Positions 6,128-57,300 are shown, counted from the first letter of the whole stretch. The stretch: 63,329 nt of DNA, filler included, from Reclinomonas americana ATCC 50394 (GCA_048213135.1; 12 parts of 12 records of this genome joined end to end with filler, not necessarily neighbours in it); one strand, 5' to 3'. Notes: generated by a model not told the origin, from the sequence alone. Program-made: numbers and translations.

Positions 6128-9100
6128 TCAAATCTTCAGCCCCGATGTGCAGTCACCGCTCGTCGCACACGCCGTCGCCGTCGACGTCGCCACCACGCCA
6201 CTCTTTGGCACACACTGCTTCGTCGACACAGTGAATGTCCACGACCCGCATGCAGTCAACTGCGAGCACCACAGCGAGCACGCTTGTGGTCCGGTTGTTG
6301 TCTTGATGGCCCACGTGAGGTCGCCACCAGGTCGGTCTGCATGCCAACAGCAACCAACATTAGTCCCGATTCTTTCTCTCATCTCTCATGCGAAGACTCA
6401 CCCGTGCTGGTCAGGAAGCCGCTGCTGTCGTACGCTGCCACACTCGTCTTGCGTCCCGACACCAAGCAGAAGTGCGAGCCACACACGTTGCTGGTCTCTG
6501 CATTGGCGGCTGTCGCCGGCACGGTGCTCTACAAACAGTAAGATGGTGAGATTGTCATCTGCCCACAAACCACTTCTTCGATCTCTGATCACGCACCTTC
6601 AGTGTGCACACACTCGCGCCTGACGAGTTCGACGCCGCAGCGGCATCCAGGAATGTCCACGATATACACTGGGAGTACCGATCACACGCTTCGCAGCACC
6701 CGACCTCGCTAGTAACAGAAGTCATCACAGCGAAAATCGTGCCACCAGGTCGATCCACTGCCTCAAACAGGCACACTTCCAACGCCGCTGCTCGATGACG
6801 AAAAGTGAGACGGTCGACAATTGGCACATTCGAGCTGAGAAGCAACGCAACGAGCGACCACTCCATTTTGCACCGCTGCACACCCCGTTCCCCAAGCTGC
6901 ACAAACACCCGACCACCGTCAGCAGCAACCACATTCTCAGCGTGCGCCACCTCATAGAAGGAAGAGAGGGCGATGACATTCATGCAGATCTGCTGCTTCC
7001 ATTTCTCTCTTCACCCCATCCACGCACCATACACAATCGAGAACTGCTTCGTGTACGTCAGCGTCCCGTCGCTCACTTGCACAAACACTTGCAGTCGCCG
7101 ACTCAGCGGCGGCGCCACCGAGATTGTCAGCTGGTTGCCGCCAACCAGGCTGAAGAGAGCCGCATGCACGCCGCCCACGATGCTGAATGTCGGCGTCTGC
7201 CCCGTGTTGAGATCCACCATGCTCAGTGTGCCCACGGTGAATGGCACCGTCGCACTCGAGTATGTCTGCGGACCGGACAGCAGAATGTCGCTCGGCGCCA
7301 CATTTCCTGCACATTCACACAGACAAAGGTTCAGCATTCTTTTTCAGTCTCCTCCTCCTCCTCTCTCTCTCTCCCCTTTCAATTGCACCATCTCCCCTCT
7401 CTCTTCTCCCGTCTCTCTGCCCTTTGCCCCTCTCTCTCTCTCCCTTTCCCAGCTTCACCCTTCCCCTCAGTCTCACCAATGGCGAATGCCGACACTGCCA
7501 CATATCGATTGGCAGGCGCCCAGCGAGTGCACAGCTCGTACGTGCCAACAGCTGCACCCGCTGCTCCAATCGTCAGCGTGATGCTGGTCGCACTGCCGAA
7601 TGCACTGCTGACGCTGGTGCTGGCCACAGCCGTCGGCGGCGTCGTGGCGCCACAAAGGGGAGTGGCCACCACATACGCCGACGCATCGGCCGAGTTATTC
7701 GCCAGTGCGGTTCCGGTCAGTGTTATCAACTGACCAGCCAGTGCCGACACAAATGTAGCCGACAGCGATGTGACAGAGGGCGCTGCATGCAAATGACAAG
7801 GCAATCAACATCATCGCGCATCAGAACATCAGACGCAGTCAGAATAGCATGCAACCAGCAATGTTGAGTGTCTGGTCAAACGACATGACAGGATTGCCAT
7901 TGTCGGTCGTGCGAACAATCACCACCAGCGACGCCGTCACTCCCGCATTCACAAATTGCAGTTGGTTGCCAGACGCAATCGTCACCAACGCGCTGCTCGC
8001 ACCACCCACCACCGAATATGTGAACGACTGCTGCGAATCCGCGTCATTCGTGCTCATGGTGCCAATCGCCAGTCCCGCAGTGCTGGGTGGAATGTATGAG
8101 CTTGCACTCAGTGTCACCGCCGTCGGTGCATTGTTCACTGGCGGAAAGACAAGGTCAGCAGCATAGCTATGATACGAAGCACTCTCAATCGAACATTCAC
8201 TCACCCGACGTAATGCTGAAGGACTTGTCGTAGAACATTGGAGGCGTTCCGTTATCGTACGAGCGGATCGTGACGACCAGTGGACTGCCCGACTGTCCCG
8301 CCGACGTGATCTGCAGCTGTGCGCCAGCGCTCACCGAAAATGCACTGCCATTCGCTCCTCCACTGACCGCGTACGTGTACGACTGGCCAACATCAACGTC
8401 GCTTGTGCTCATCGTACAAAGTGGAACACTGGCCGTCGATGGAGCGACGTACGTATTCGTTCCGGTGCATGCAATGTCGGTAGGCGTCGAGTTAGAGATA
8501 GAGGTGGTGAAGGACAAGGTGGAGCCGGTGAGGGTGCTGGGCACGGTGGAGGTGGAGATGGCACGGAAGTAGTACGTCCAATTGGCGGCGAGTGACGTCA
8601 ATGTCGCGACCAGGGCCGTGCTGGAGGCGACACCTGAAGAGGCTGGAGTGGCCGAGACGGTGGTGGAGCCGATAGCGAGTCGACGAATGGTGTTATTCCA
8701 GTACTCTACGGTGAGAATGTTGAGAAGGAAGTGGTGTGACAACTGCACAATCAGCTGGAGGCATCACACCTGCGATATGCAGAGTGGACGTCACGGCATC
8801 GAATGCCATCAGAAGCTGCTCTTGCATGTTAGCTCGAGAGCACAGTTACATGGAACATTACAGAGCGAACCGGATTTGAGAATCGAGCGGATGCGAGTGG
8901 GCTCCCATCGGCAGATCCAGAGACACCAGCAGCCCCAGCGATTGTTGTGACAGCGGCCGTGCTGATGACAATTTGGCGGATCGTGTTGTTTGTTGTCTGC
9001 GATGGCAGCGTTAAAACCGAGAAAGATAATGAAATACATCAAAAAGCGCAAACACAACATCAGTTACGTAGAGAACGCCCCGTGCTCGATCAACCTGGAT

Positions 9101-12100
9101 GCCGACTGGCGTGTTGAAAAGAGCCGCTGTGCCGGTGGCATCTGTCGTACCGGTTGCCGCGGTGAGCGAGCCAGCCAGAGTCGACGCAGTCATCGCCAGC
9201 GTGTCGATTGCACGAACATTGTGTCTGGATCTGTCAACTGCATATCTCAATGGTGTGAGTACACGTCCCTCGTCGACAGCACATTGCAAAGACGCACATA
9301 TATGCACATACACACACCGACGTACAGCTGACTCGCCGTTGAATCCAATGCAAAGCTATTCGGCGCACCAAACCTTGCTGTTGTTGCACAAGGTCCATCG
9401 ACTGTGCCCGATGACCCAATCGTGCCGCAGTAGGTCGTGACCTCGCCGCCGTATGTGACCTGCGGGGATGATGGCATCTCAGCAGAGCGCCGCACAAGTA
9501 CAGAAGTCGTTCGGAACATGCATCCACGCACTTTTTTGACGACTTTGTTCAACGTGTCGCCAACGTATATGACTTTGTTAAACGAGTCCACCACAATGCC
9601 GTAAGGACTATTGAACCTCGCGCTTGATCCAGTGCCATTGGCAATGCCAAAAACTCCGTTGCCAGCCAATGTAGAGACAGAGCCAGAAGGCGTGCTCATG
9701 CGAACAGCATGATTGCTTTGCTGTAAAGCCTTGGGTGTAAGACACACAGAGCACATTTTTTCGCCCGCAAAATCACTCTCTTAATGGTAGTAGAATCGTC
9801 ACGCAACATCAGCGATGTACAAATACCCCGTGGTCAGGTCGATCGATAAGCCAGTGGGCAATTTAAATCGTGCAGCAGAGCCGATTCCGTCAACAAAGCC
9901 GTTGGCTCCAGCAGTCCCCAGAAAAGTCGACGTCACACCTCCACTCGTCACCCGCCGGATAGTTTGGTTTTGTTGGTCGCAGACGAATGCAGTTCCCGAC
10001 GCGTCAAATGCAATTCCCTGTATCGCAACACATAAGGGAGAAGGCGTGCACCTTGTAAAAGGCAAATGAAAGACACACGTTTGGCCTGTTGAATTGAGCA
10101 GCATTCCCCGTGCCATCCGTCGTACCAGACACGCCCGCCGTGCCCAACCACGTTGACACTGCCGGCGTTACACTGAGTGCAGCCGCCGACGGCGCCCACT
10201 CAAACGAGTTGCTCATTGTCGAGGCCGCCACAGAATTGCCCACCACAGCATTCAAAGTCACAGACGATGTTGTCACACTGCTGGCCGCTAGCGTGGCCAG
10301 TGACTGCGTGGCTGTGACACGCCAACATAGAGAGAGAATCATGTTGAGTGACGAGCACAAGATAGAGAGGGGGAGGGAGAGGAAGAGGGGGACGGCGAGG
10401 GGACAAAGAGGGGGGAGGAGGGACAAGGAAGAAAGAAGAGAGAAAGAGGAGGAGGAGGAGGAGGAGGAGGAGGAGGAGGAGGAGGAGGAGGAGGAGGAGA
10501 AGGAGGAGGAGAAGGAGGAGAAGGAGAAGAAGAGGAGGAGGAGAAGGAGGAGGAGAAGGAGGAGGAGAAGGAGGAGGAGAAAGAAGAAGAAGAACAAGAA
10601 CAAGAACGAGAAGAATAGACAAAGGAGAAGGAGAAGAAGGAAATGAAGAGAAGTCACACAATCACAGACAAACAGAGTGAGATCACAACGAGGACGACAG
10701 ACACACGCAAAGGCTGACCATCATGCAGCCTCCAACCGTCTCACCTGTAGTGATGGCGAACGCCTTGTCGAAGAACAGCGGCGGCGTTCCATTGTCCGTC
10801 GACCGGATCGTCACCGCCAGCGAGCTGCCCGCCTGCCCTGCGGCCACAATCACCAGCGACTGCCCGCTGATCGAGAAAACCGCACTATTGGCGCCCCCGA
10901 CAATCGAGTACGTGAACGACTGGCCCGCATTCGTGTCGGTGGTCTGCAGCGCACAAACGACTTGATTCGCCACCGACGGCGACACATACGTTGTCGACGA
11001 GCACGTAATGTCGGTCGGCGCCACATTCGTGGTGGTGGTGAACGACACGGTGGCGCCATTGATGGTGCTGGGCGTGGAGGTGACGCCGACGGCGCGATAG
11101 TAGTACGTCCAGTTGCTCACCAATCCAGTCAACGAGGCGGTGATTGAAGCGGCCAGGGAGCCAGTGGAGGTGGCGGATGTGGCCGACACCGATTGAGATG
11201 CTAGGGAGAGGCGACGGATGATATGCGTGGTGTAATCGGCAACCAGCACGGACGCCGTTGATGCATCGAAGGCCAGATGGACAGGCGAGTTGAACCGTGC
11301 CAAGGTCAGAGCGCTGCCGTTGGCTGATCCGCTCACGCCCGCCGCACCGCCAATCGTTGTCACAGACGAGTCTGACACTCGAAGTTGCCGCACGGTGTTG
11401 TTGACGGACTGCGTCGGACACAAGGCATTGAGAACCAAGAAGCGAAACTTTCGGAGTGTGGTGGGAAGGTACTCAACATCGGCAACATAGATGACGTTGC
11501 TTCCCGAGTCGTATGTCAGTCCGATCGGCGTGTTGAAGCGGGCAGCCGTTCCTGGTGTGCATCGATCAGCACGCAAGCAAAGGATGAGCACATTGCGATG
11601 AACTCACCGGTGGCATCCGTGGATCCTGATGTACCGCTCGTTGAACCCGCCACCGTCGTCACCGTCATCGCCACCGTATCAATGGCCCGTATGGAGTTGT
11701 TCACACGGTCGACTGCACCCACGCAAAACCAAGCAGAAGGCGCAGATGAGGATGGGATGAAGGGCATCGTCTTTCCCGCACACTCTCACCAACATACAGC
11801 GTGGTTCCGACAAGCAGCACGCCATTGGGACCTCCGAATCGCGCCGCTCCCGCACACGCACCATCGGCGGTGCCACTCATGCCAGTAGAGCCACAAAAGG
11901 TCGTCACCGCGCCGGCATAGGTCACTCGCCGGATAGTGTTGTTGAGCCAGTCGCCCACATACACCACTTGGTTCGTGGCATCCACCGCGATGCCCATCGG
12001 CTGATTGAACGAGGCGGCTGCACCCGAGGCATTGGCACTCCCCGACGCCCCGTTTCCCGCCAGTGTGGTGACCACGGCTGCTGAGGTGACAGCGCGAATC

Positions 12101-13152
12101 GCGTGGTTCGTCAACTGTGTGTGTGAGAGAGAGAGAGAGAGAGAAAGAGGCAGAGAGAGAGAGAGAAAGAGGCAGAGTCAACAAAATGCAACACGAGCAT
12201 GATCAAGAAAGCAAGCATGCAAGAACACACTCACATCGGCGACATACATAGTTCCCGTGGTTTGGTCGATGGCGAGACCGGCAACACTGTGAGCGCGTGT
12301 GAGTGAGAGAAGAGAGAGGAGGGAGAGAAGAGGGAGAGAGAGAGAGAGAGAAAGAAAGAAACAGCAAGAACGCACTTTTTGAACTGAGCTGCCACTCCTG
12401 TCGCATCCACCAGGCCGCATGTGGTGCCAGCAAAGGTGGTCACTGTGGCTGCGGGCGTGATGCGTCGAATGCGACAGTTGCTGCCATCATCGAGTGCGCG
12501 CACGCGAGTGAGAAGAAGTGACGAATCAACAACAATCGACAGACAACGAGGGAAGAGTGCATGCACGACAAACCCGTAGTCGCCCACATACACGTTGCCC
12601 ATGGCATCGAAGGCCAGTCCCTGTCGAGAGAGCACGCACACTCAATGTCAGCGAAAGTGCACGACATGCTACAGAGGGTACAACATAGTACTGTCGTGCA
12701 CAAACCATTGGCGTGCTCAACAATGCACTTGCTCCAATGCCATTAGTCGTTCCCGACGTGCCTGCTGTGCCCGCAAAGGTGGAGACAGTGGAGGAAACGC
12801 CCAGAGTGGTAGAGTAGGGCGACCACTCAAAGTAGTTGGTGGTGCCTCCCGCGACATTGTTGGGATTGATCCATGCATTGAGGGAGGCGGACGAGCCAGT
12901 GATGTTGGTGGCCACAGCGGTGGTCACCGTCTGGGCGTCTGTGGTGGAGGTGTGTAAGCAACGAGTGAAAACACAAGGCGGCCGCGGGCATGTAACGGGT
13001 TCGTGCAGCGTGCGCGCGCGCGCGCAGCGCTGCGCTCACACAACACGTATACGCGCATTTTGACGTACGCAACTCGCACGGACAGCCAGAGAGAGGACGA
13101 CAAGAAGACACAAGACGGTGACTCGAGAGTGGGAGTGTGGAAAGACGAGCAT
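6128..13152 (-). CDS. Large secreted multidomain protein: signal peptide, 2x (Fn3-like domain with inserted NHL beta-propeller + cadherin-like domain), further cadherin-like/Ig-like domains, two PAN/apple-like domains; about 20 introns
   Basis: Signal peptide MLVFPHSHSRVTVLCLLVVLSLAVRA(N)AQ; NHL repeats TxAGxxGxxDGxGxxARFNxPxGI..YVADxxNxxIRR; cadherin-like NxAPTDI...TxDxDxGQSFTYS..GG...VxIRSxDNGxP; Cys-rich PAN motif CSLWCSQLTACGSWTF...C; no transmembrane segment seen. Confidence 0.85.
10441..10645. repeat. Intronic (GAG)n/(GAA)n trinucleotide tract
   Basis: Visible directly; produces spurious polyE/polyS/polyL ORFs. Confidence 0.95.
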
Positions 13153-15389: not shown

Positions 15390-17201
15390 CTCCTCAATTG
15401 GCATCTTCTTCAGCATGGGGATCATGGACGTGTGCATGCCAATCAACCACGGCATCGGCGCCGTGAGATAATCCAGCAGTTTCTTGGGCAAAATCGGGAT
15501 GAAAATGTGCTGCGCCGAACAGTGAGGCGACACGCAAGAGAGGACGAGGTGACGCGAGACGAGGATTAACCTGCCACCGGAATGGGTAGAGCATGGAGGT
15601 GCACGCTTGCATGCATGTGGACACGGTGGCGAGGTTGCGAGACGTGAGCAAAATGCGGCGTTCCTCGAGCAAGGCGGCAAAGATCTGTGTAACGGGTGGC
15701 GTGAGTGCGATGGGTGCGAAGGAGAAGGTGGGTGGTGCAGTGTGTTACCTTGACGACGCCATCTGCACCGCAGGAGGCGAATAACCGCTCGACGCGAACC
15801 TGCGGGATGAGAGAGGTTGAGCATCGCGGTCACCCATTCCCATCTTCTTATCCCTCCCAACTGACCTGCGTGATTGGCGGATTCTCCTGGTTGTCCTCAA
15901 AGGTGAACTCGCGTGTAATGGTCTGTCCACCAAAGCCAAACTCATCCTCGGCCTCGATGGAGAACGTCACGGGTGGTGGTCCCTGTGGCGACAGACGTGA
16001 GATCCTCTGTGATTGGGGAAGAGAGAAATATATAATGGACGCACTGGAATCTTGCACAGCTGCGTCATGAACGGGATGAGGAAGCTGTTCAGGCTCACAC
16101 GGAGCTCCTCCAGTGTCTTCAAAATGTGCATGAACAGGCCGTAGTATTCGCTGTGGAGATGGGGAAGAAAGAGTGAGCCGAAGGGGGGAGGAAAACATGC
16201 AATTGAGCGATTCTTTACGCAACAATGACGAAATGATGCAGAGACACTCGACCGAGTACACCTCTCGGCCATCATCCAGCAATGTCGGCGCCACCAATCG
16301 CTTGCAGTACCCAAAATGACGACCTCCAGACGAGTCCGTCAGTGCAAACGTGAACATTTCGCTGCGGGTGGGGAGAAAAGTGAGAAGAAGGAGCGGGGAG
16401 GAGAGGGGAGCAAGGGGAGAAGAAGAAGATGTGCAAGAAGAGGCAGAACATGGTAAAGAAGAAGAGGGGGAGAGGAGGAGCATCAAAGTTGCGCAATGAG
16501 TGCAAGGACGAGTCGGATGTGTCTCTCACAAATACAATCGCTGCCTTCGACATTCGACGTGTGAGTTGATGTATGTCTGATCAGAATGGCACACACGGAG
16601 AGACACTGGAGAGTGTGCTGCCCGACCAAACAGGCTCTCTCTCTCTCTCACACACACACGCGCGCGCGCACACACACATAAACACAAACACAAGCGCATT
16701 TCGACGCGTGAGATTGGAAGGGTACGCGTGATAACAAAGGCGCACGTGCGCAATACAGCGAGAGATAACAATCCTTCTCTCTCCGTGTGTGTGTGTGCGT
16801 GTGTGTGTCTCTTCCTCCTCGCCCTTTCTCCTCTATCCATCTCTCTCACTCTCTCTCTCCTTGCGCGTGGGTGCAATCTTCCAAGGCGTACTTATAGTGA
16901 CACGATACTCTTGTTCGCGTGCGATACCAAGCTCCCAGCACCCCACACATCTCCTGATCTCACAGAGCTACGAGCCGCCTTTCTCCCCTACTCTGCGCCA
17001 ATGTATTTCAAGTCTCCCGCCCTCACATCCTCGCACGAATCACCCTGCATGGGTCACAAGGAGCTCTCTCTCTCCGAGTGTGAGTGTGCGTGTGTGAGAG
17101 AAAGAGAGAGTGCGTGAGTGTGTGTGAGAGAGAAAGAGAGAAAGAGAGTGCGTGTGCCTGTGTATCTCAAGTCTCCCGCATGGAACTGTGTGTGTGTGAG
17201 A

Positions 17202-17249
<48 letters not shown>

Positions 17250-17426
17250 NNNNNNNNNNNNNNNNNNNNNNNNNNNNNNNNNNNNNNNNNNNNTTAATTA
17301 ATTAANNNNNNNNNNNNNNNNNNNNNNNNNNNNNNNNNNNNNNNNNNNNACGTACGTCGTTACGTACGTACGTACGTACGTACGTACGTACGTACGTACG
17401 TACGTACGTACGTACGACACACTCTA

Positions 17427-17500
<74 letters not shown>

Positions 17501-17925
17501 GCGCACACACAGATACAAGAGCATCCATGCATCTTCGCGCGCGAATCACACCACACAAACACACACACACACACTCTCTCTCTCTCTTCCACACAAACAC
17601 ACACACTCTCCTCTCACACAAGACACTCACAAACACGAGGTTGGCCATGACCAAGATGCCACATCGCGCACACCCTTCTCCCCCTCTCTCTCTCACGCAC
17701 ACGCAACTCATTCATCACTGTGCTCAACGGCGACGGCCACTCCGGGAAGCAGAACTCCGGCACCTGTCTCACTCGCGTGGCATCCAGCGCCCCCGCCAGT
17801 GTTCCATCCTCCTCCACGGCATCGACTTGCTGCAGCACACACGGTGCCTTGTTGGTGTCGCCGTGGTCGGGGAAGCCGACTTGGAAGAAGTGTGAGAGGA
17901 GGTGTGACGATGAAGGCGATGGCAT
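15390..17925 (-). CDS. DENN-domain Rab GEF (DENND1/connecdenn-like); multi-exon, spans a gap, 3' end missing
   Basis: Motifs [80 protein letters not shown]. Confidence 0.92.
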
Positions 17926-18923: not shown

Positions 18924-19940
18924 TTACTCGAACACCACCGGCTGCGCCAGACACCGATACAAAACAACTTCCGCCTCCTCGACAAGGAAACACCGCAGCA
19001 CAGTCTCCGCAAGACAGCGGCGATCCGCTTCCGCCAGCATCTCCTGGACGGACCACGTCGCTCGGCGTGCCACCTCGAGCTCGTCACGAGCCAGGCCACG
19101 AGGTGTGCACCATGCACGCACCGTGTCGTCGCCACTGCCACTCACGATGTGCTCACCATCGCGAGTAACGGCGACACACCACACCACCTCTTCGTGCCCC
19201 TCTAGCCGTTGCACTTCCTCGCCACTCGTCAGCGACCACACGCGCACCGTCGAGTCATCACTGCCACTGACAATGTGCTCACCATCGGGAAGGACGGCGA
19301 CAGATCGCACCGTGCCAGTATGCTCTTTCAACCGTCTCACTTCTTCTCCAGTGCTCAAGGACCACACTTGCAAGGCCTTGCCAGCCACAATCACCACATG
19401 CCGCCCGTCGGGAGTGACGGCCACAGACCACACCGCACCAGCAAGCCCCCCCAACAGTCGCACCTGCTTTCCACTCGCCATGGACCACACACGCACGAGC
19501 TTGTCATCGCCGCCACTCACAACGTGCTGACCATCAGGAGTCATGGCGACACTCCACACCCACCCATTGTGCCGCTCGAACAGTCGCACCTCCTCGCCAC
19601 TCGCCAGCGACCACACCCGCACCGTGTTGTCATTGCTGCCACTCACAATGAACTGACCATCGCGACTGACGGCGACAGCCCGCACCCACCACGTGTGTCC
19701 CTTCAATCGTCGCACCTCCTCCCCAGTCGCCAGCGACCACACTCGCACTGTGTGGTCATCGCCTCCACCCACCACATGCTGACTGTCGGGAGCGACGGCG
19801 ACGCACATGACTACCTCGTGTCCCTTCCATTGTCGCACCTCGTTCCCGCTCGCCAGTGACAACACTCGCAAGGTGTTTTTGTCGGCAATCACAACGTGCT
19901 GGCCGTCGGGAGTGACGGCGAATTCACGCCTAACCACGCA
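18924..19940 (-). CDS. WD40-repeat protein, paralogue of 138-1232, with C-terminal tail; 5' end uncertain or frameshifted
   Basis: About 7 WD repeats closely similar to the first gene; tail TPRGLARDEL...VLRCFLVEEAEV. Confidence 0.88.
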   Translation of the reverse strand, partial: CVVRREFAVTPDGQHVVIADKNTLRVLSLASGNEVRQWKGHEVVMCVAVAPDSQHVVGGGDDHTVRVWSLATGEEVRRLKGHTWWVRAVAVSRDGQFIVSGSNDNTVRVWSLASGEEVRLFERHNGWVWSVAMTPDGQHVVSGGDDKLVRVWSMASGKQVRLLGGLAGAVWSVAVTPDGRHVVIVAGKALQVWSLSTGEEVRRLKEHTGTVRSVAVLPDGEHIVSGSDDSTVRVWSLTSGEEVQRLEGHEEVVWCVAVTRDGEHIVSGSGDDTVRAWCTPRGLARDELEVARRATWSVQEMLAEADRRCLAETVLRCFLVEEAEVVLYRCLAQPVVFE

Positions 19941-20088
19941 GTGGAGGCAGTTGCGAAGGAAGAACGGGGGTGAGGGAGGCATATGTGACAGAGAGGGGAG
20001 AGAGGGAGAGAGGGAGACAAGCAGTCAGAAGACAGACACACAGCGAGAGAGAATGTGTTGTGTGTTGTGTGTTGTGTGTTGTGTGTTG

Positions 20089-20672: not shown

Positions 20673-21326
20673 ATGGTGACCGCGCGTTGCTCTTCACAAG
20701 AACGCGCGGCAGCACTGTGTGTTTTGATTACGTGTGCATGCATCGAGAGGGATGGAGAGACGCTGCTTCGTGTTCTTCACTGGTCGTGCGTGTGTTGAGC
20801 GAGCGAGAAGAGTCATGTCCACTGCTTTCACGCACACTGTTTCTCTCGTCCTTCTCCCCTCCGTTGCACCGCGCGAGTACGCCTCTCTCTCCACCCAGTG
20901 TGTGTGACCATGTCTCGCTAGTGAGAATGCCCTTTGCCCGACGCCCGTGCGACATGGTGCTCACTCTTGCACACGCACACTCGCAGACCACCCGGTTGAA
21001 GAAGAACCGCAAGAAGCGCGGCCACGTCTCGGCTGGTCACGGTCGTATCGGCAAGCACCGCAAGCATCCAGCGGGTCGCGGTAACGCTGGTGAGTCGCAT
21101 CCCTCTTCTCATCCAAATCACACGGATGCGCGTGAGTCTCACTCTTCCGTGTAATCCAGGTGGCCAACACCACAATCGCATCATGATGGACAAGTAGTTG
21201 CGTACCTGCCTCTCATTACTACCATCCCTCTATGTTTCCTTGTGCTCACGCTCATCTCCACTCCACAGCCATCCTGGTTACTTCGGCAAGGTCGGCAACC
21301 GCTACTTCCACAAGACCAACAACCAG
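20673..21326 (+). CDS. RPL27A: 60S ribosomal protein L27a (uL15), 5' part; exons ATG(20673 or 20954), 20987-21089, 21160-21196, 21269-21326; 3' end in gap
   Basis: Spliced [62 protein letters not shown] is the uL15 signature. Confidence 0.97.
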
Positions 21327-21697: not shown

Positions 21698-24600
21698 ATG
21701 AAGTCTCGCGGGTGCTTTTGGTGCGGCTTCACCTGGCTCATTCTCGGCCTCGGCCTCGTCGCTCTCGGCATCACGGCCTACTTTGTGCTGAAGACGACGC
21801 TGGAGCAGGGCATCAAGGACCAGACGCTCATCAAGCAAAACACGCAGGGATTCACCGCCTGGGCCAACAACTACAATGTCGACCCCAACAGAGAGGACAC
21901 TGTGCCCACGTATAATCAGTTGCGCATGAAGGAGGGAGGGAGAGAGAGGGTGGAGGAGAAGAGAGAAGAGGAGAGGGAAATGTCCGAGTTTTTTCTTGCG
22001 CGCTCTCTCTCTTGTGTTGCTGTTGTGTTGTGTATGAGAGAGAGAGTGCACGAGGAGAGAGTGCGTATGTGTGTGTGTGTTTGCGGGCAAGGGATGTTCT
22101 GCGATTCCTTTATTCCAATCACGTGTATCAGTCACTTGCGCGCGCGCGTGCGTCTCTCTCCTCTTCTCTCTCTGTGTGTGTGCACTGTGTGTGTATGAGG
22201 GAGAGAGAGAGATGTGCACGCGCGTCACTCGGGAACAATCAGTGTGCAATCAAAGTTCGCATTCGCTTTTCCCGAGTGTGAATGCGTGAGTGTGTGTGAG
22301 GAAGAATAAGGAACTGTCACTCCACACACGCGCTCTTATGCACTCTCACTGATGCACTTCCGATTGCGCTTGTCTATTGTGATTGTGTGTGTGCATCGCG
22401 GCTCCTTGTGTTGATTATTGACCATATTTGGTGGGCAGGTTTTACATGTGGAACATTACGAACCTCGAGGAGTCGCTGACGATGGGCACCAAGCCGCACT
22501 TCGAGGAGGTCGGCCCGTATGTGTACAAGTTGCGTCTTGATTGGTGTTGTGCGTGAGTTGATTGGTGTGTGCTGGCGGGAGAATAATTGAGGAGGGGAGG
22601 GAGGGAAAGGAGAGATGGGGAAGGGGGAGGAGGCAGGGGAAGGGACAGAAGAGAGAGTAATATCGTCATAATTCGTGCCTTCTTTGCGATTGTTGTGGTT
22701 GGAATGATCGGTGTTTTGCGTGGTGTGCTGGCGGGATAATATTTGCGCGTGGATGGCCAGAGGGTGAAATGGGAGATAGAGGGAGAGGGAGAGGGGGAAA
22801 GAAGAGAGAGTAATATCGTCAAGACACGTGCTTTCTTTGCTTGTGTTTGATTGGTGTATGTGGCGAGTGAGGAAGAGCGAGAAATGGAGTGCAGAGAGTA
22901 ATTGATATCGACATAATTCGTGCATTGTTTGCGCTTGTTGTGTGTGGATTGGTTGATGCTAGCGTGTGCTGGCGGAAAATTGAGCGTGGATTGCGAAAGA
23001 GGGGAAGGGAAAGAGTAGGAAAGCAGAGAGAGGGAGAGAGAAGCGGATGGGGCAGAGAGGGAGCAATATCGTCAGAATTCGTTGTGCTGGCGTGCGGGTT
23101 GATTGATGTTTTGCGTGTGGTGAGAATAGCAAAGAGTGTGAGTGAGAGAGAAGGAGAGGAATGCGTGCTATGTCTTCAGAATGGATTCTGCGCGATTGAA
23201 GTTGGGAATCGGGCGCTCTTGATGTCTCTCTCACTCTCACGTGTAACTGATTCTTCGCTGGTGAAAGAGAGATTTTGCGGTCAGTATTGAGAGGGAGAAA
23301 CAGAGACGCTGACTGGGTATATTGAGGCATACGTATTCTCCTTGAATGACAGATAGCTGCGACAGGAAGCAGCAGATAACTCAGTCGGGAAAACAGCTTG
23401 TCCTCTCCGCTCTCTGTGTGTTTTTCTTTCTTTCTTTTTTCTTTCTTCTTCTTCTTCTTCTCTCTCTTTCTCTCTCTCTCTCTCTCCCTGTTCCTTCGTT
23501 CATCTCTCCATTTGACTTCAGCCACGCAGCAACTTCAACGAAGTCATGCCGATCGAACTATATCTTGCACTCTGCTCGTTGTTCTCTCTCTCTCTCTCAC
23601 ACACACTCTCTGTATGCGTGTGTGTGTATTTGTGTGTTTATTCTTTCTTTCTTTGTTCACCAGACACACATCAGCTTTCGAAGAGAGGACACGATTTTCT
23701 TGCTCATGTTCTCAATCATGTATCGCAAGTACACCGACCATCATCATGGCGCAACAGCCGTGCGCAGTCTTTCTCTCCCTCCAGTCTCTCTTTCCCGTTC
23801 ACCCATCCCCCTTCTCTCTTTCCCTTTTCTACGCATCATCTCATCATCATCGCCCTCAGGAAACTGCAAACACGCGTGCCAGTCTCCTTCAAGGACGACA
23901 TTGTCACGTACGTGCAGTGGACGCGCTACATGTTCGACCCCGACTCCACACCCGCCCATCTCAGCGTCAACGACAAGATCACCAATGTCAATCAGCGTTG
24001 CGTCGTCGTTGCCTTGCCTCCCCCCTTTGCCTTCCCCTCACTTCTTCCTCCGCCCGCCTCGCAGTCTACATTGGCGCCATGGCTCAGGCCGGCGGCGAGG
24101 AGGGCATCGCCCTGCTGGGCCTCACGGGCTTTGTGACGCGCCAGATCTACAATTTGTATATGTCAGACGCGTTTATGATCCCGGTCAAGACGGGCATGCG
24201 TGCATCCATTCTCACCTCGTTCTGGGAGGCCGCCAAGAAGGTCTACAGCGACCCCGGTGATCTGGCCAAGGCACTCGATGCGATCGGCAAGGCCAGTCGC
24301 ACCGATGGCTCCTGCTCGCAGTTCCTGCCGCCGGTGGCCGAGTGCCAGCAGTATTTGGGTTCGCTGACCACCGGCGCCGATCTGACCACGCCGCAAGTGT
24401 CGCTCTTCCTCGACACCTCCAACGGCGCCTCGCCGTTCAACACCAATGCGAACAAGTTGTGGACGGCGGCGTGCTACCAGGCGGATAAGGATGCTCTTGG
24501 TGAGTGGGAAAAGGGGAAGGTGAACTAGGGGAAGAGAGATATAATGGAGTCCTGTCAGTGGATCAACGCACGCAGCGCATCATCTCTTGTGAGCCAGGAG

Positions 24601-41134: not shown

Positions 41135-43910
41135 GCATGACAGATAAAATGTGGGACACGCGCACCCACTCAGTGACAGAGGGAATGTGTGAGAGAGAGA
41201 GAGAGAGCGGAACGGGGAGGATCAGATAATCTCGTTCACCCTCCTATTGCATGAAGAGTGCATTTCAAGGATGATGGGTGAATCGAGAGGGTGTGCGTAC
41301 ATGCTCTCCTGGCAATATCTCAAACGGTTGGGTGCGTCTCTCAGTCTGTGTGGACCACGAACACATCTTGCATCTTCTTCTCTTTCTCTCACTTCTCCAT
41401 TCACGCCAAGCTTCTTTGTTCTTCTGACTTACCATTTTTCTTCTGGCCTCTCTATCCACTACTCTGCTTCCTTTTCCCCCTACCCTTCCATTCTCTCCAT
41501 CCTCCTATCACATGTGTGGGTCGGCCTCAGAGCTTGCCTCCTCTTTCTCTCTTTCTCACTTCTCCTTGTAACCTCATTCTGTCGTTCATCGATCTCACCA
41601 TTTCTCTTTCTTCTGCTTCGTCTCCTACTCTTTCCACCACTCTGCTTCCCATTTTCCCCCTACCTTTACTCTTTCTCCGTCCTTCAGTCACTGGTTTCAG
41701 TCCTCTTCCTCGCAACTTGCTTTCCCTTCTCCTCTTCCCTCTCTCATCCCCCTGTCTCCTTCACCTCTCTGCACACTTCTCTTCACACCTCCTTTGTCTC
41801 AGTCTCACTGTACTCTCTCTCTCGCGCCCCTCTTCCCTTTACCCCTGTCCCCCCTTCGCCCCTCTTGCTCACCATCATACACCGCTCCACTCGCATAGAT
41901 AAACACGCCATGCCCATGCCGCATGTCATCGCGAAATTGTCCCGTGTACTTGCCGCCACCCATCGGATACCGAAACTCGCCACGCTGCAGGTGATCCAGT
42001 CGGAAACTGCCGTCAAACACACACCCGTTGCTCATCTCCAGCCGCCCACGACCGTGCCTCTGGTCCTCGGCCCACGTGCCCGTGTACACACTGCAGTCGC
42101 TGTAGTGGCAGCTGCCTTCGCCGTGCCGCTTGTCGTGCGCCCACATGCCTGGCGGGGGCGGTGAGTGGGGGGAGGGACAAGAAGAGAGGGCGGCGGTTAC
42201 CTTCGTATCGTGCTCCGTCCGTGTAGTAATGCGTCCCCCTTCCGTGTCGCATGTTGTGGTAAAATTCGCCCACGTAGATCTGGAGGAAAGGAGGGTGAGT
42301 GAATGTGTAACGCGCTTTCGTCCTTCACCTTTGTCGAACCTGCCCATTCGCATACTCGAATCGCCCCTCCGCAATCTCGTCCTTGATAAAGGTGCCAGAG
42401 AACTTGGAACCCTTTGTGGTCACAAAGGAGCCCATGCCGTGCCGCTGGTCGTTGCGCCAGTCGCCTGTCGCGAAGTTGGATGAGTACGTGACGAGGTGGG
42501 TGAGAGGATCGACAAGCGACTCACCAATGTATGTTCCATGCGGTCCAGTCAGTGTGCCGTGTCCGTTTCTCATACCGTGTGCAAACTCGCCCTCTGCAAT
42601 GATCGAGAGAAGGAGAGTGATGTGAGAGATAGAGGGAGAGAAACAGGGACAAGAGCCCACATCTCTTCTTCAATTCTGTCTCGTCATCTCACTATCCTCA
42701 GCAAGACAGAGGACGAGCATTACAACTCTCAGCAAGAAAGGACTGAGCGCCAGCATGAGCTCACATCTCCTCCTGTCTCTCAGTCTCACCCACTCTCGGG
42801 GTGCATCGCATATCCTCCTCCTCAACCCGCGCCTTTCCCTCTTGCGCCCACACAGAATGAACAAGGAGGCATCAATCAGCGACCTCTTCTCAGTCTCTCT
42901 TAACCTCGTTCGCACTCTCAGCCTGACTCTCCGCCTTGAACCCTTTCAGAATGAACACGCATTGCACGGCGCTTTCATCCCTCTCCCCCTCCCAGCAAGA
43001 AGGACACAGCTTCGAATGAATGCACAACTCTTGTGAATCCCTGTCTCCCTGACTCACGGAGCATCACACTTCGCTCACAAATCTCTCCCCTCAGCCTGCG
43101 CCTTTCCCACTCTCGCCCCTTCGAGGAAAGATAGAGGACGAAAGAGCAACGTAAAATCATCACTCTTGTTCAACAAAGTCACTCCGCATTGCGCTCTCAC
43201 AGCAAGACAAATAGCACGCATCACAAGGTGTTCTTATCCCTCTCCAGCAAGAAAGGACTGAGCTGCAACTTGAGGCCATCTGCCTGCCTCTCTACCCTGT
43301 CAACGAACACGCATTACAAGGTGTTCTCCAGCAAGAATAGACTGAGCTGCTACATGAGCCCACCTCCCCTCCTCAGCCCGTCTCTCAGTCTCAGGCAAGG
43401 CGGTGAACACGCAATCTTATCTCTCTCCCTCCCTCCCCGCAAGGTGGAGAAGAAACCAATTACTGAGCCCACAAGTCCGTCTAGTTTGGCACTATCTCAC
43501 TTCCCAGCATCGCACACTCGCCAAGGCTAGGCACCCTTCACTCCCACCCTTCCCACAAGTCCGTCTCCTTTCTCTTCTATCGACAGCCTTCCCTCTCTTC
43601 TCCTCCCACCCTTCCCTCTCCTTCTCACCATATGCAGATCCATCGGGAAAGTGCAGCACGCCATGATACACTGTCGACGCCTCCAAATCCGCCTCCAGCA
43701 ACTGTCGCTGTGGCGACATGCGCCTCGGCGATTGTCGCTGTTGCAATAACTGTTGATCGGCGTCGAGCTCAGCGCGTTCTCGGAGCTGGGAGAGAAGAGG
43801 AGAAGAGTGAGGACTGCTTCGATATTATCGACATCTGAGTGAGGAGAGAGAGAGGGACGAGGAGGCAGAGAGGAGAGGGCTTTCTTCAATATCTTGGCTG
43901 CTGATTGTGA
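40168..43910 (-). CDS. MORN-repeat protein; multi-exon, 5' end uncertain (possibly beyond the gap, near 45140)
   Basis: More than 10 YxGxWxxDxRHGxG repeats across exons. Confidence 0.9.
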
Positions 43911-44615
43911 TCCGAGGGAGTGAGAGAGAGAGAGAGGCAGAGGGAGAGCGCGCGTGAGGACAGTCAGAGAATGCCTGAGTGACAGAGAGAAAGACCTGAG
44001 CGATCTGCTGAGAAAAGATGAGAAGATCAAGAACACCACGACTCGCCTCTCTCCCACACTGACTCCTGCTGAGGCACTAGAGGGACCTCTCCTCTCACAC
44101 ACTCTCCTCTTCCTCCTCTCTCTCTCTCTCTCTCTCTCTCCCTCTCTCTCTCTCTGTTTCTTTTCAGTCCCTTCCACTCCATTCTCATCTGTTTCATCCT
44201 TCTCTCAATACTCCACGCGCTGTTCCTCTTTCCATCTTCTCTCTGGTTTTCTTCAACCCCTTCCAACATTCTCATCCGTCTCACCTCCCTCTCAACACTC
44301 CATCTGCTGTGTTCATCTTCCCCTCTTTCTCTCTCTTTCTTTCAATCCGTTGCACTGCATTCTCATCTGTCTCACCTCCCTCTCAACGCTCCATGTGCTG
44401 TGTTTTCTGTAACTTGTCCGCCTTGTACTCTCACATCCCTGATCTCCTCTTCTCTCTGTTCCCCCGCGACATCCATGCAGCATCTTCTCGCTCTCTCTCT
44501 CTCTCTTTCTCTCTCTCCTCATTCCGTACCTCTGATCTTTCACTCTCCTATCCATACCTGTACCATTCTTCCGACTTGTCCGTTGCCACCTCGTCTTCTG
44601 TCCTAATCCTTTGTC

Positions 44616-44710
<95 letters not shown>

Positions 44711-45546
44711 CGTACTACTCGTACTCTCGTACGTACTACGTACGTACGTACGTACGTACGTCGTACGTCCGTACGTACGTACCGTACCGTACGTACNNNN
44801 NNNNNNNNNNNNNNNNNNNNNNNNNNNNNNNNNNNNNNNNTTAATTAATTAANNNNNNNNNNNNNNNNNNNNNNNNNNNNNNNNNNNNNNNNNNNNCCCG
44901 AACCGTACCGTCCGTCCTTCCTCCCCTACCCACTACGTACCTCCGTCTCGTGGACGACTACGTAGGACGTACTCCTCTCCACACCTCTCCTCCTTCCTCC
45001 TCTCTCTCTCTCTCTCTCTCTCCCCACGTCTCTCTTCTCACTCTCTCTCTCTCTCTCCCCTTCCTGCGCAACATGGCGAGTGGCATCGATGGACGAGTAC
45101 ACCAACCCGGGCGTGGGTGTGGTCACTTGGTCGGCCAGCATCCGCGAAGAGACAGCGTGAGTGAGTGAGAGTGTGTTCGACGTTGGGTGAGAGGCGTTGT
45201 GGGACTCGGCGACGTCGATGATGAATGAGGGTCCACTGCGTTGATTGTCGCTCGCTTTGTAGTAGCAAGTAGTTGGTAGAGCCAGTGCCTTTGTTTGCTT
45301 GCAGTGGAGCTTGCCAGCAACGTCGCTCTCGATTGTGTTCGGAAACTGCACCGGTTTTCGATATCTCCAGCTCCAACGACGTTGTCTTGGTCGCCCAAGT
45401 CCAAACCATGTTGAAACCGTCAACACAAGCACAGTCCTTGAAGGCAATAGGTTTCCTTGTGTCGAACCAGTCGAGAACTGACACGCTTGCAATTGGAAAT
45501 TTGTCGCAATATCGAAAAGTGGTATGAAGTGTTTTTCTTTCTTTTG

Positions 45547-46243: not shown

Positions 46244-47259
46244 CTACTGTGGAGTCAGCAGCTTGTATGTCTTGGCCCACTGCAACGGCGATGTGAGCAG
46301 ACAAGTGCGTGTGTCTTAAAAATTCGCTGCCGTATCAATATTAGTACCTGTCCGCGCAGGAAGCCTGTCGTGCACCACAACCGGCAGAGCGCCTCCAAAG
46401 CACGTCCCGACTCGGCAAAGCCGGCGTCTTCGGCCACATAGCCGCCCTGCCGTTGCGCAGAAGTGAGTGGCCACGGTTTCGTGCATACCGATATCGAAAT
46501 CGTTGATATCGATCTCACTTACCGCCTTGACGAGCTCTGCCACCACCTCCTTGGCACCGGCATCGTTTCCAGCAATGAACATGGTGGCAGGGCCACCGGG
46601 GAACGCATTGCCCTTGTCAAACATGCCGGCGCCCACCGTGTTGAAGGCCTTGACGAAGCGAATGCGCGGGTACGTCTCCTGCAGCACCTCCAGCAGGCTC
46701 TTGTTGATGTCAGTGAAGTAGTTGAAGACGCCGTTCTCGAGTGGAGCGTCCGCAATCGGGTTAGTCTGCGCGCGTCGCGAGAGAAAGGCAGTGAGCCGGC
46801 GAAGCATCGATGTATCGGGACTCAACACTCAGCGCAGCGCAACAGCATCAATGACAATCTTGTCGCCAATCAGCTCAGCCAGAGGCTCCACAGCAGCAAC
46901 TGCAGCCGTGCCCTTCACAGCCAGCAGGACCACATCAGCCGACTGCACAGCGTCGGCATTGGTGGCCGTCTTGATGCCAATCGAGGAGGCAAAGTCGGCC
47001 AATTTCTCCGGTTCGCGACTGTGGGTGCAGCAGAGCGCGGATCGTTATTTTCTGTGCATCGCGTTGTGCGTGTGTGCGTATACCTGGCAATGGTCACGTC
47101 ATAGCCACCGCTCTTGAAGACGGAAGCGAGGGCCTGCAGGTGCAGCACTGTTAGTCACCGCAGCGCGCGTGCAGAGAGCGCAAGTGCGCGCGACAGACAT
47201 GCCTTGGCCACATCACCAGAGCCGATGATGGCGAGGCTCTTGACAGCAGAAGCAGACAT
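46244..47259 (-). CDS. NADP oxidoreductase, F420-dependent/dinucleotide-binding family; 6 exons
   Basis: Spliced LAIIGSGDVAK|ALASVF..IA|SREP..ADVVLLAVK..KIVIDA|TNPI..VKAFNTVG..MFIAGND..ALEALCRLWC. Confidence 0.9.
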
Positions 47260-50890: not shown

Positions 50891-50965
<75 letters not shown>

Positions 50966-51164: not shown

Positions 51165-51260
<96 letters not shown>

Positions 51261-53273: not shown

Positions 53274-53384
53274 TGGATTTTTCCTCTCTCTCTTTCTGGG
53301 ATTGTTGCTGCAAGAATAAGTTATCGACGAACTCAACTGTGAACGCGATGACTTGTCGACGTGTAGCCTTGCTGTGAATTGGCG

Positions 53385-53808: not shown

Positions 53809-54270
53809 CCCCGCTTCGTGGAAGACGTGGAGCGCACAATGTCACTCCTGGCATTCGGCCTCATGGCCCCGGCAGCTGGCGAGGGAGGTGCCGGTGCCGC
53901 TGGCTCCTCCGCCGGCCTCCCCGAGAGTCTGATTCCGCCCGAGTCGGCCTCGCTGCTGGACATTACGCACCGACAGCAGGTCGGCGCCGCCCTCAACGCC
54001 GCCATTCTGCAGTCGCAGTCACACGACCAAAGTTGCGCTCTTTCTCGACTATCATCCTCTCTCTTGTCATCGCGTGTCTTACTCTCTCCTGCCCCCTTTT
54101 CCTCAGACGCCAAGCTGCCGATTCTGTTGAAAATCCTGGTGTGGGCACAGAAGCGACTCAGCGAACGCTACGAGTTCCCCGTCATGTCGAGCTTTGCGGG
54201 CACGGTGTTTGCTGGTGGCTCTGGTGCTTCGGCGTCGGCCGCGGCCGCCGCCAGTGGCAGTGGTCGTTGA
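53809..54270 (+). CDS. GID8: GID8/TWA1 (CTLH/GID E3 complex subunit), 3' exons (CRA domain)
   Basis: VERTMSLLAF..LLDITHRQQVGAALNAAILQSQSHDQ|NAKLPILLKILVWAQKRL..FPVM. Confidence 0.88.
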   Translation, partial: PRFVEDVERTMSLLAFGLMAPAAGEGGAGAAGSSAGLPESLIPPESASLLDITHRQQVGAALNAAILQSQSHDQSCALSRLSSSLLSSRVLLSPAPFSSDAKLPILLKILVWAQKRLSERYEFPVMSSFAGTVFAGGSGASASAAAAASGSGR

Positions 54271-54390
54271 GGTGGCGATGTGGTGGTGGTGGTGGTGAAA
54301 AACATGTAAAGCAATGTGAATGCATCGAAATAGAAAAGGGCGAAGAAGCTCTCATTTGTGCATTAGCGACTACAATTACAACAACAACAT

Positions 54391-57300
54391 TTATTCCTGC
54401 TCACGATGAGCATGCGAACACCTGGAGGCGCTCGTGCGCACTCCGTCACCACTGCCAGGGGCGCCATGCTCGTCGTCATCGTCGTGCGCATGTCCCTTGG
54501 TCTTGCCCTTCTTGCCACCTGCCTTGCCCTTCTTCTTCTTTGCCTTCTTGCTCGCTTTCTTCTTGGGCGACGACGCATCGGCAGCCGCATGTGCCGACAG
54601 GGACGACGTCGGCGCCAACTCTTCTTCCTCCGGCTCGACGTCGCAGGCGAGCGTGTCGTTGATGAGATCGTTGATCAAATCCACACATTCGTCGAGCGAA
54701 AGCAGCCGCCGGAAGCGCGCGGTGGATCCGCGTCGCTGGTGCGAGACGTACAGGCGGCGGCGCCAGACGACCATGTCGGTGACCTTGTTTTGCACGTCCT
54801 CTCTGCGGGTGGAGAGGAGGGGTGAGTGGCAGCAAGAGGCCAAGGAGCAAGTAATGCATGCTCGATCAAGAGTGCTCAACGGCAGCAACAAGAGAAGAAG
54901 TCCACACACACAAACAATCCTCTCCTGTGAAAGACAATCGAGACAGGACAGACTCCAGAGGAAGACACCGTGCAAGCATGCTCGCTCTATTGCACTCACT
55001 CCCATCAATGAGGGCATCGGGGACAGGCTCAAAAGGAGGAGTTGCGATCTGAATCATACAGGTTCTCTCACTTGCAAGCTCTCCAACCAACTCAAGAGGA
55101 AGAGGAGTCGCATTCCTCGCCAGGCATGCTCGCTCCATCACTCAATAATCACAGAGACCCAATAAACTCAAGAACAGAATACCACAACAACAATAGCATC
55201 GAGTCACAACAGACTCTGGAGGAGTTCCGCTTCACATCGCACAATCTCGCTCTTTGCATCCAAGACCTTGTATCAAGTCACCCTTTCTCTCACCGCATAC
55301 GAAACAATGAACCCGCACCATCCCCCAGCTTCCTCGCTCACAAATCTCTCTCGTACTCTCTGCACACATACCAACACTCAAACACACACTACATCAAAAC
55401 ATAGCACACACAAACAAGCAAACAGAACACAGCGCACCACCACACTCCCATTCAAAGACTCTCTCTCTCGTATCTCTCTCTCGCACACTCGCTCTCTCTC
55501 ACCGCCTGCCCACCGCTTCCCTTCTCCCCTTACCCCTCTCCTCTCCCTTTTCCCTCTTTCGCCGCAACTCGGATATCAAATCCGTCTTGGGCGTCGCCAT
55601 AATCAACCGCGAACGCACATCTCGCAGCTGCGCCACATTGATGCCCGCACGCCGCATGAGCACCGCCAGTGTCACTGACTGCGGCTCCGACAACCACGAC
55701 CGTGGCTGCCGCTCACGCCCGCCTCCCGGCACCGCGTGAAGCATGCGCAAGAGACCGACAACGCGGAGATAGTTGGCCTCCAGCTGACAGCGCCAGGCGC
55801 ACAAGGTGGTGCGGAAGGCGCGTTGCAGGCAGTGCAGAGAGCGCGAGAAGCGGTGGATGGCGCGAACGCACTGCAATGGTGTGAACAGAAAAGCGAAAGT
55901 GTACGATAGAGAGACGAGTGCACAAACCATCTCCGATCGATTGTGATCCACAATCGACTGGCGAATCAGGCCAGTGAGACGACGCACGCGGTGCCGGTGG
56001 AGGCGGAACTGAATGAGACGAATGTTTCTGGCAGAAGAACAGCTGATGAGCAGCTGGTGAGATGACAGAAGTGACACAAGGAGCGCAACTCTTCGATCAC
56101 GCGAATGGCGTGTAGACGGCGCAGAATCTTGAGCTGCACACGGGGCCACAAACGCAGTTGAAGAGTGCGTGCCGCATGCTGTCGTCTCCGTTTCTCGCGT
56201 TGGCGAGAGACCAAGACCTGGTGACACGAACAGTGAGCCATCCTCCTCCTTTCATCGCTCTCTCCCTTCCCAACACACCTGCGCCGACTCGTGCCACATT
56301 TCCACACCGCGCACCGCCACCGACAAAATCACCCACTGCCTCACGCACGGGCGCATGCGCACCACGTGTAACCGCTTGTCCACCTCCTGCACGGCACGCT
56401 CCGTGCGTTGCTCTGTGGCCACCACCTCGGCCACCTGCCGCTCGTGCTCCTGCACGAAGAGCTCCTTGCGGATCTCGCGAGCCTGATGCAGGCGCTGGTC
56501 GCGGACCTCGGCCTGCGAGAGGGGGAGGGGGGTGGGGGAGAAGGGGGAGGTGAGGGGGATGAGGGAAGGAGAAAGAGAGTAAAGGGGGAAGAGGGTACGA
56601 GAAATAAGGAACGTCTTTCTTTCTCATTCTCATTTTCTTGGTCTTCTTTTTCTTCTTCTTTCAACAGGGAGGACGTAGAAGTGGTGCATAGTATCAGAAA
56701 CACTGGCGAAGAGAAGTAAAACTGAATGTGTGAGGGGTGCAGACGAGGTAGCGAAGAGAAACCGAGTGGACTGAGACCAAACGAGTGAGTAAGAAAGTGA
56801 AGTGGTGGCGAGTGCCAGATACACTGGCGACGTGAACAATGACTGAAAAGAGCGAGTAAAACTAAGTGTGTGAAGAACATGGCACAATGGAAAGAGAAAG
56901 AAAGCGTGAGTGAGACAGTGATTGATGGAGAGACAACCAGGCACACAGACGAACAAACTATGAATAGAAGAGCGTATTGAAGAGTGTGAGGCACAATGGC
57001 ACAATGGAAAGAGAAAGAAAGTGTGACTGAGATAGTGATTGATGGAGAGACAGCTAGGCACACAGACGAACAGAACTGTGAACAGAAGAGCGAGTATTAT
57101 AGAGTGTGAGGCACAATGGCACAATGGCAAGAGAGAAACAGAGCGAGGAGACAGTGGGCAATAAAGTGAACACATGGCACACTTACAACGAGAAACAGCG
57201 CGGACACAGGCGAGAAAGTGAGTGGGAGGTCGATGAAGAGACAACGAGGTACATCAGAGATTGATAGAGGGAGAGTGAGACAACGGACAGCGAAGAAGCA

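Follow-up and report, generated by a model that had tools for sequence, protein, structure and literature searches.

The pairing of a 5' splice site with the 5' arm of U1 small nuclear RNA (snRNA) is not confined to a single register. Shifted-register donors (Roca and Krainer 2009) have been described in human, where experiments have established both shifted and bulged registers (PMC4856993), and a review treats both as accepted (PMC9311317). Among 201,541 human donors, 68 with a bulge at +2/+3 (54 of them curated) and 51 with a bulge at +3 (36 curated) were counted (Tan et al. 2016, PMC4856993), and a two-class view of 5' splice sites separates pairing on the exon side from pairing on the intron side (PMC11732430). 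We have analyzed a stretch of 63,329 nucleotides from Reclinomonas americana ATCC 50394 (GCA_048213135.1), below called the window, in which a substantial class of predicted introns begins with the hexamer GTTGCG.

GTTGCG shares with the human shifted-register donors a U at +3, a G at +6 and a U at +7, a larger number of base pairs once the register is moved by one, and an A instead of a G before the cut. The human sites are rare exceptions, however, whereas GTTGCG makes up about 17% of the predicted introns here. The bulge registers offer a further likeness, as GCGU could pair like positions +3 to +6 of GUGCGU with the additional U behind GU looped out as a bulge, but they would favor a G at -1. 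In its normal register GTTGCG is complementary neither to the U6 ACAGA box nor to the U1 arm. A see-saw between exon-side and intron-side pairing, as put forward in PMC11732430, is also visible in the window, but here there are two strong intron motifs, GTGAGT and GTTGCG. That a genome can encode U1 RNAs with differing 5' arms is shown by the human variant U1s (PMC3561869) and by the diplonemid S. specki, where the 5' end of one of two U1 genes is replaced (PMC12621601); the donors given for diplonemids in the latter source are (G)/GTATG, not GTTGCG.

GTTGCG as a donor class

The window has a G+C content of 54% and holds 22 masked blocks of N. All results are based on DNA, protein homology and a custom gene model. 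The gene model was a two-strand Viterbi procedure in which coding sequence was scored by a 3-periodic Markov model, acceptors by a self-trained matrix and introns penalized for their length, and in its first pass a donor was defined as GT only, so that the model was donor-agnostic. It replaced earlier gene finders whose predictions were excessive on both strands or ran genes together across long, false introns. A Pfam scan of 150 open reading frames (ORFs) provided a gene map but did not resolve junctions.

GTTGCG is a real, abundant and major donor class in the window, and it is tied to a base other than G, mostly A, at -1. The donor-agnostic model predicted 102 introns, and GTTGCG was its top donor hexamer with 11 cases, compared to 49 occurrences among the 7865 GT sites of the window, a 17-fold enrichment (Poisson P ~1e-10); GTGAGT was used 10 times. 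After training on donor hexamers, 104 introns were obtained, with 16 GTGAGT and 14 GTTGCG donors. For the final set five model donors were removed and seven introns added, namely five replacements for the removed donors and two introns missed by the model, the one at 11477 and a second in RPL27A. Protein evidence backs six of the seven added donors, and the seventh, 13073, is ambiguous. Note that the donor-agnostic model had placed several true donors 3 to 24 nucleotides off. The resulting 106 predicted introns comprise 25 with GTGAG, 18 with GTTGCG, 5 with GTGCG and a heterogeneous remainder.

The 13 GTTGCG sites listed by a first-pass annotation of this DNA, along with GTTGAG at 11477 and GTTGTG at 9058, are all present on the strands assigned to them, each preceded by an open frame, and their description as an abundant donor class is borne out by the counts above. 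Four GTTGCG donors were found beyond that list (36799, 58398, 57563 and 45072), the last two of which are weak. As a bare hexamer GTTGCG is not elevated (24 occurrences on the plus and 25 on the minus strand, against 44 for GTTGCA and 60 for GTTGCT), so that its total frequency is the wrong test and its position the right one; there the 17-fold enrichment applies.

As to the claim that many junctions are pinned by conserved protein, six GTTGCG junctions are residue-exact (21197, 21919, 22529, 23997, 16223 and 27979), family profiles lend support to another three (9807, 46843 and 54032), 13073 is ambiguous, 17707 is marginal, and 39506 and 55568 are placed by ORF, coding potential and acceptor (Table 1). 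The RPL27A junction reads AAG TA/GTTGCG...CACAG/C CAT CCT, and in the solved uL15 sequence (chain 6zj3_La) the exon before the junction aligns with residues 40-54 and the one after it with residues 56-90; one residue is left between the two matches, and the split Tyr codon TA/C is thereby accounted for. For the CD36-family gene, a HMMER search of the full library yielded 113 homologues that were used in local tblastn across the junctions, and at 21919, 22529 and 23997 no residue was missing or extra. Exon 2 of this gene begins at position 54 of the Pfam CD36 profile, and across 22529 the profile runs from 54 to 82 in one exon and then from 87 to 129 starting at residue 4 of the next, while the in-frame GTGAGTT 24 nucleotides downstream of 22529 would add 8 residues. 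At 23997 the donor is the sole in-frame GT usable with its acceptor. The CD36 ORF had no match in a word-indexed search. The closest named relatives, at 40% identity or less, come from the jakobids Andalucia, which is intron-poor, and Stygiella, and from Endostelium, Balamuthia and Thecamonas (amoebozoans and an apusomonad).

In the DENN gene, the word-indexed search with the ORF returned a single protein, P0247. Its alignment scores 146 with the donor at 16223, as opposed to 114 and 138 with the other in-frame GTs, and the exon at this junction holds positions 37-55 of 57 of the uDENN profile. The same protein marginally prefers 17707 over a GTTGAGC at 17728 (146 vs 143); searches of the PDB with three DENN exons gave nothing relevant. 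In the oxidoreductase gene the upstream frame closes 12 nucleotides into the intron at 46843, and PDB searches with its exons gave no chain common to both; matches of the upstream query to TAL-effector repeats were discarded as chance, arising from the read-through part of the ORF. The exons flanking the 39506 intron had no Pfam match at E<=1. Those flanking the new intron at 36799 carry their PPR_2 matches in different frames, and for 57563 nine other in-frame GTs are possible.

The gene with NHL repeats contributes several sites that need to be read together. The donor at 13073 is ambiguous because a GTGCGAG 6 nucleotides upstream is usable in the same phase. The donors at 9807, 9058 and 11477 occupy homologous repeat positions and are therefore not independent; the exons downstream of the 9058 and 11477 introns read TTNNTIRQ and SVNNTVRQ, respectively. 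A fourth homologous position on the minus strand, 12234, carries T/GTGAGTG, such that the introns at 12234, 11477, 9807 and 9058 follow the same GAT exon end with four donors, GTGAGTG, GTTGAGT, GTTGCGT and GTTGTGT. This suggests that the donors of these repeats interconvert through point changes within the intron together with the gain or loss of a single base.

Table 1. Introns with GTTGCG or related donors in the window, and unambiguous degenerate donors
Gene and intron	Position	Strand	Exon end/donor	Length (nt)	Phase	Evidence
RPL27A/uL15, intron 3	21197..21268	+	TA/GTTGCGT...CACAG/C	72	2	Direct reading; chain 6zj3_La
CD36 family, intron 1	21919..22438	+	CA/GTTGCGC	520	2	P0137 and P0210 contiguous to the residue
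CD36 family, intron 2	22529..23859	+	AA/GTTGCGT	1331	2	P0130, P0145 and P0146 contiguous
CD36 family, intron 3	23997..24064	+	C/GTTGCGT	68	1	P0122, P0125 and 7 more homologues contiguous
NHL repeat	9721..9807	-	GAT/GTTGCGT	87	0	YIAD/QSNH; sole usable in-frame GT; donor-agnostic model
NHL repeat	8997..9058	-	GAT/GTTGTGT	62		NHL profile 1-19 of 28 ends at exon end
NHL repeat	11409..11477	-	GAT/GTTGAGT	69		Open, in frame; NHL profile 1-19 of 28 ends at exon end
NHL, first intron after signal-peptide exon (ambiguous)	12939..13073	-	A/GTTGCGT	135	1	MLVF...AVRA/N/AQTV
DENN	16151..16223	-	TT/GTTGCGT	73	2	Gapless alignment to P0247
DENN	16362..17707	-	GA/GTTGCGT	1346	2	ORF, acceptor
Kinase, last intron	27904..27979	-	CA/GTTGCGT	76	2	Spliced C-terminus gapless against paralogous kinase on + strand
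MORN/SET-like	39140..39506	-	ACA/GTTGCGT	367	0	ORF, coding potential, strong acceptor
F420-type NADP oxidoreductase	46766..46843	-	GCT/GTTGCGC	78	0	VIDA/TNPI; F420_oxidored profile 28-91 of 94 ends at exon end
CTLH/CRA (GID8-like)	54032..54106	+	A/GTTGCGC	75	1	CTLH profile 73-125 of 146 in upstream exon; sole usable in-frame GT
Uncharacterised	54803..55568	-	GA/GTTGCGG	766	2	ORF, coding potential, acceptor; donor-agnostic model
PPR repeat (new)	36799..36869	+	CCA/GTTGCGT	71	0	Donor-agnostic model; PPR_2 in both flanking exons
Uncharacterised (new)	58335..58398	-	CA/GTTGCGC	64		Donor-agnostic model; sole usable in-frame GT
Same gene as 58398, second intron (new, weaker)	56513..57563	-	CAT/GTTGCGT	1051		Predicted after donor training; strong acceptor
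Possible first intron (new, weak)	43835..45072	-	CAT/GTTGCGC	1238		Model; short first exon, uncertain acceptor
Degenerate unambiguous donors	15570, 42339, 42200, 46347, 15865, 29927	-	GTTAAT, GTTCGA, GTAACC, GTACTA, GTCAGT, GTCTAT			Exon ends AG

The composition around the cut sets this class apart. At -1 the 18 GTTGCG donors have A in 11 cases, T in 5, C in 1 and G in 1, the G belonging to the dubious donor at 5650; the 11 best-supported ones have A in 7, T in 3, C in 1 and G in none, and a G is absent from this position at all 13 sites of the first-pass list, as had been stated there. Its companion statement, that -1 is mostly G in GTGAG and GTGCG donors, is valid for GTGAG (19 of 25) but not for GTGCG (2 of 5). 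The difference in the -1 base between GTTGCG and the GTGAG and GTGCG classes together is significant (Fisher p=1.3e-5). Against predicted coding sequence, where the base before GT is A in 16.5% and G in 27.4% of cases, the chance of at least 11 A among 18 is 2.5e-5 and that of at most one G is 0.024. On the intron side +6 is G in all 18, and +7 is T in 12, C in 5 and G in 1, the frequent +7 T mirroring the +6 T of GTGAG donors (17 of 25). The exon ends in CA/G in 5 of the 18. As evidenced by the fraction of occurrences that are donors, the motif is narrowly defined: GTTGCGT is a donor in 12 of 15 cases (7 of 7 when A precedes), GTTGCGC in 5 of 20, GTTGCGG in 1 of 5 and GTTGCGA in 0 of 9, with GTTGAG at 1 of 39, GTTGTG at 1 of 57 and GTGAGT at 17 of 121.

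Fourteen introns have a sole in-frame GT and well-scoring flanks, among them three with GTTGCG, three with GTGAGT and six with degenerate donors after AG. All six of these unambiguous degenerate donors follow AG, in four cases as CAG, and with pairing on the exon side, any base at +3 to +6 seems to be acceptable in this genome. The window thus displays a see-saw between the two sides of the cut, in which AG donors go with a degenerate intron start and non-G donors with a strong intron motif.

At their 3' ends the introns of the class resemble those with GTGAG donors. GT...CAG ends are found in 18 of 18 GTTGCG introns, and CAG in 23 of 25 GTGAG introns; a branch-like CTNAY is present in 15 of 18 and 17 of 25, respectively, with the branch A of the GTTGCG introns 14-38 nucleotides from the 3' end, and the pyrimidine fraction is 0.78 against 0.77. 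With GT-AG ends, a restored frame, a YTNAY-like branch and a pyrimidine tract, they are by their sequence features ordinary introns of the major spliceosome (U2-type), although their donors lack the complementarity to the U1 arm, assumed standard, in the canonical register (-3 to +8) that is typical of this type. U12-type introns have an RTATCCTT donor, a TCCTTAAC branch near the 3' end and no pyrimidine tract. An assignment to that type was rejected, as the donor is GTTGCG and the branch-like motifs CTCAC, CTCAT and CTTAC are accompanied by a pyrimidine tract.

As a separate observation, GTTGCG also stands just before two acceptor-like CAGs (...CCGTTGCGCAG/) at 46452 and 51410 (+). The one at 51410 ends a predicted plus-strand intron and the one at 46452 is antisense to a predicted minus-strand intron; TTGCAG ends several other introns, and the coincidence is possibly due to chance.

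Recognition of GTTGCG donors

Pairing was modeled with a standard U1 5' arm. GTGAG donors reach 7.4 pair-equivalents in the canonical register, with a mean duplex energy of -9.3 kcal/mol, while GTTGCG donors reach 3.75 there and 5.8 after a shift of the register by one. The best single account of the class is, in our view, a displaced-register reading of (C)A/GUUGCG(U/C) by a standard U1, although we advance it tentatively and stop short of calling it probable; in this we infer both the displaced register and the standard host arm. The U1 5' arm would be offset by one nucleotide from the cut site, so that +1 G pairs with C9, -1 A with U10 and -2 C with G11. The U at +2 would stay unpaired, A7 would pair with +3 U, position 6 would wobble with +4 G, and C4 and A3 would pair with +6 G and +7 U; the U6, U5 and Prp8 steps would then fix cleavage at the sole GU present. 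The donors have the features of shifted-register sites in that more U1 pairs form when +1 G lies on C9 and in carrying -1 A, +3 U, +6 G and +7 U. A shifted register thus explains the A at -1, opposite U10, the frequent CA/G and the T at +7, but not the near-absolute C at +5. Given that the degenerate donors follow AG or CAG, U1 positions 9-11 look standard, and the CA/G of the GTTGCG class would be the same box moved by one. The shifted recognition suggested in the first-pass annotation therefore finds support in the number of pairs and the flanking bases, and meets its difficulty in duplex strength and in the +5 C.

Several observations weigh against this account. Whatever the register, GTTGCG donors are predicted to form a very weak duplex with the standard U1 arm (mean -1.5 kcal/mol), and at +4/+5, where a stable helix would be expected, the +5 C is a mismatch. 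The human shifted motif GUUAAG reportedly carries A at +4/+5 and pairs well; in GTTGCG the GC at these positions makes for a weak duplex, and the A-containing GTTGAG is almost unused here. The shift model makes GUUGAG at least as good as GUUGCG, yet the donors number 1 and 18, in the reverse order of canonical GTGAG (25) and GTGCG (5) (p=8e-8), and these counts also contradict the earlier proposal that GTTGCG is simply GTGCG with an additional T. A T at -1, which pairs with nothing in the shifted register, is found in 5 of 18 donors, and +8 is without purine preference (9 of 18). In the 63,329-nucleotide window no snRNA gene (U1, U5 or U6) was found, with 0 matches at the Rfam gathering threshold; at E<=1 the window gave 25 matches, none to an snRNA, most of them to microRNA models that matched simple repeats such as (ACGT)n. 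Moreover, denominators are approximate, since the donors of about half of the 106 predicted introns show no recognisable motif, at least one prediction (53241) is false and others are doubtful, such as that at 5650, with an intron of 42 nucleotides. A bulged-U register fits on the intron side, where the sequence resembles GUGCGU, but would favor a G at -1, a base that no more than 1 of the 18 donors carries (depletion, P=0.024).

The narrow specificity of the motif, with its requirement for C at +5 that a standard U1 arm does not explain and its very weak duplex with that arm, would be more readily understood if a dedicated snRNA variant existed, such as a second U1 whose arm is complementary to GUUGCG (containing CGCAAC) or an altered U6, with two donor codes served by one major spliceosome. 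U1 RNAs with changed 5' ends exist, as cited above for human and S. specki. On the other side, the window contains no snRNA-like gene even at the permissive threshold, and judging by the CAG consensus on the exon side of the weak donors, positions 9-11 of U1 seem to be standard. We regard a dedicated variant as a serious rival, if a doubtful one, and its specific form, two parallel codes in which the standard U1 reads G/GUGAGU while A/GUUGCGU is left to another U1, or to a modified U6, complementary to GUUGCG, as rather unlikely. The degenerate donors after AG raise the alternative that there is no special recognition at all, the introns of this short-intron genome being defined mostly by 3' signals, length and exon-side CAG, with GTTGCG tolerated and common by descent or mutation bias. 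A T at +3 is indeed also present after -1 G, and the homologous NHL-repeat introns, with four donors after the same GAT end, point to easy interconversion. Tolerance of this kind does not lead one to expect the 17-fold positional enrichment in a donor-blind model, the use of 80% of GTTGCGT heptamers as donors or the strong bias for A at -1, and common descent does not explain the frequency, as the introns lie in unrelated genes and have no common sequence beyond the motif. It is therefore an improbable explanation.

It is very improbable that the junctions are misplaced by annotation and that the true donors are nearby canonical GTs. Such a neighbor is available for 13073 and for 22529 (the GTGCGAG and GTGAGTT mentioned above), and 17707 is marginal; the six residue-exact junctions, however, are fixed by independent proteins, and 9807, 23997, 54032 and 58398 have no other in-frame GT for their acceptor. 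Least credible of all is an origin as introner copies or as nonconventional introns of the euglenozoan type with end-to-end pairing, for which one could cite the similar short length of many GTTGCG introns (64-87 nucleotides) and the discobid protists among the closest named CD36 relatives. The ends are GT...CAG throughout. In an all-vs-all blastn of the 106 introns, the 34 non-self matches were all microsatellite, with one 17-nucleotide out-of-register match joining two GTTGCG introns, and an introner family was accordingly rejected. So was end-to-end pairing, since the 5'-3' duplex of an intron with its own 3' end (-7.8 kcal/mol) is hardly different from that with the 3' ends of other introns (-7.4 kcal/mol).

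Neighboring genes and other features of the window

Two paralogous IRAK/Pelle-like kinases lie on opposite strands, at 27804-30876 (-) and at about 51300-53280 (+), and the latter is without an intron at the position of 27979. As it ends with ...REVCGQFTLLLD and a stop, the model intron at 53241 that joined this kinase to the CTLH (GID8-like) gene is false. Three genes with WD40 repeats, at 75-1229 (+), 2554-3927 (+) and 18927-20024 (-), contain near-identical repeats of the form VRVWSL..GEEVRRLEGH, and by their sequence they represent a local family expansion; a word-indexed search with a WD40 ORF gave 2196 generic matches of at most about 50% identity. A metagenome scan with a 612-amino-acid ORF gave 593 pattern matches, of which 0 were confirmed. 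Intron 4 of RPL27A, at 21409-21507 (+), has a sub-threshold match to the C/D-box small nucleolar RNA (snoRNA) SNORD14 (32.8 bits at a gathering threshold of 64, E=0.008). For a ribosomal-protein gene there would be nothing unusual in an intronic snoRNA, but this one is probably unannotated.

The masked blocks occur at 11 places between 14670 and 61815, always as two runs of 44 N with 12 readable bases between them. Several fall inside long introns, and some intron lengths and the acceptor at 33158 are uncertain for this reason. Directly adjoining masked blocks, (ACGT)n tandem repeats are found at 17351-17415 and 44728-44796; these explain the microRNA-model matches of the permissive Rfam scan and most of the GTACGT counts.

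Implications of an abundant GTTGCG class

Donors read outside the canonical register were already known, and the GTTGCG donors are remarkable for how abundant and specific they are. Literature searches, judged by title among the matches listed, yielded no account of a GTTGCG/GUUGCG donor class, and a paper on the host genome, should there be one, may already report it. In the window GTTGCG, which has a U at +3 and its conserved G displaced to +6, is the most donor-specific hexamer and opens about one intron in six, while the +2/+3 and +3 bulge registers in human together account for far less than 0.1% of donors (PMC4856993). Where gene finders have been trained on GTRAGT-type donors, such junctions will be missed or misplaced. 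If the reading by two donor codes were true, about one intron in six would rely on an undescribed snRNA variant. Should RNA data confirm the class genome-wide, the organism would offer a natural system for studying what determines the cut site where U1 pairs out of register or hardly at all, and a test of the co-evolution of snRNA arms and donor classes.

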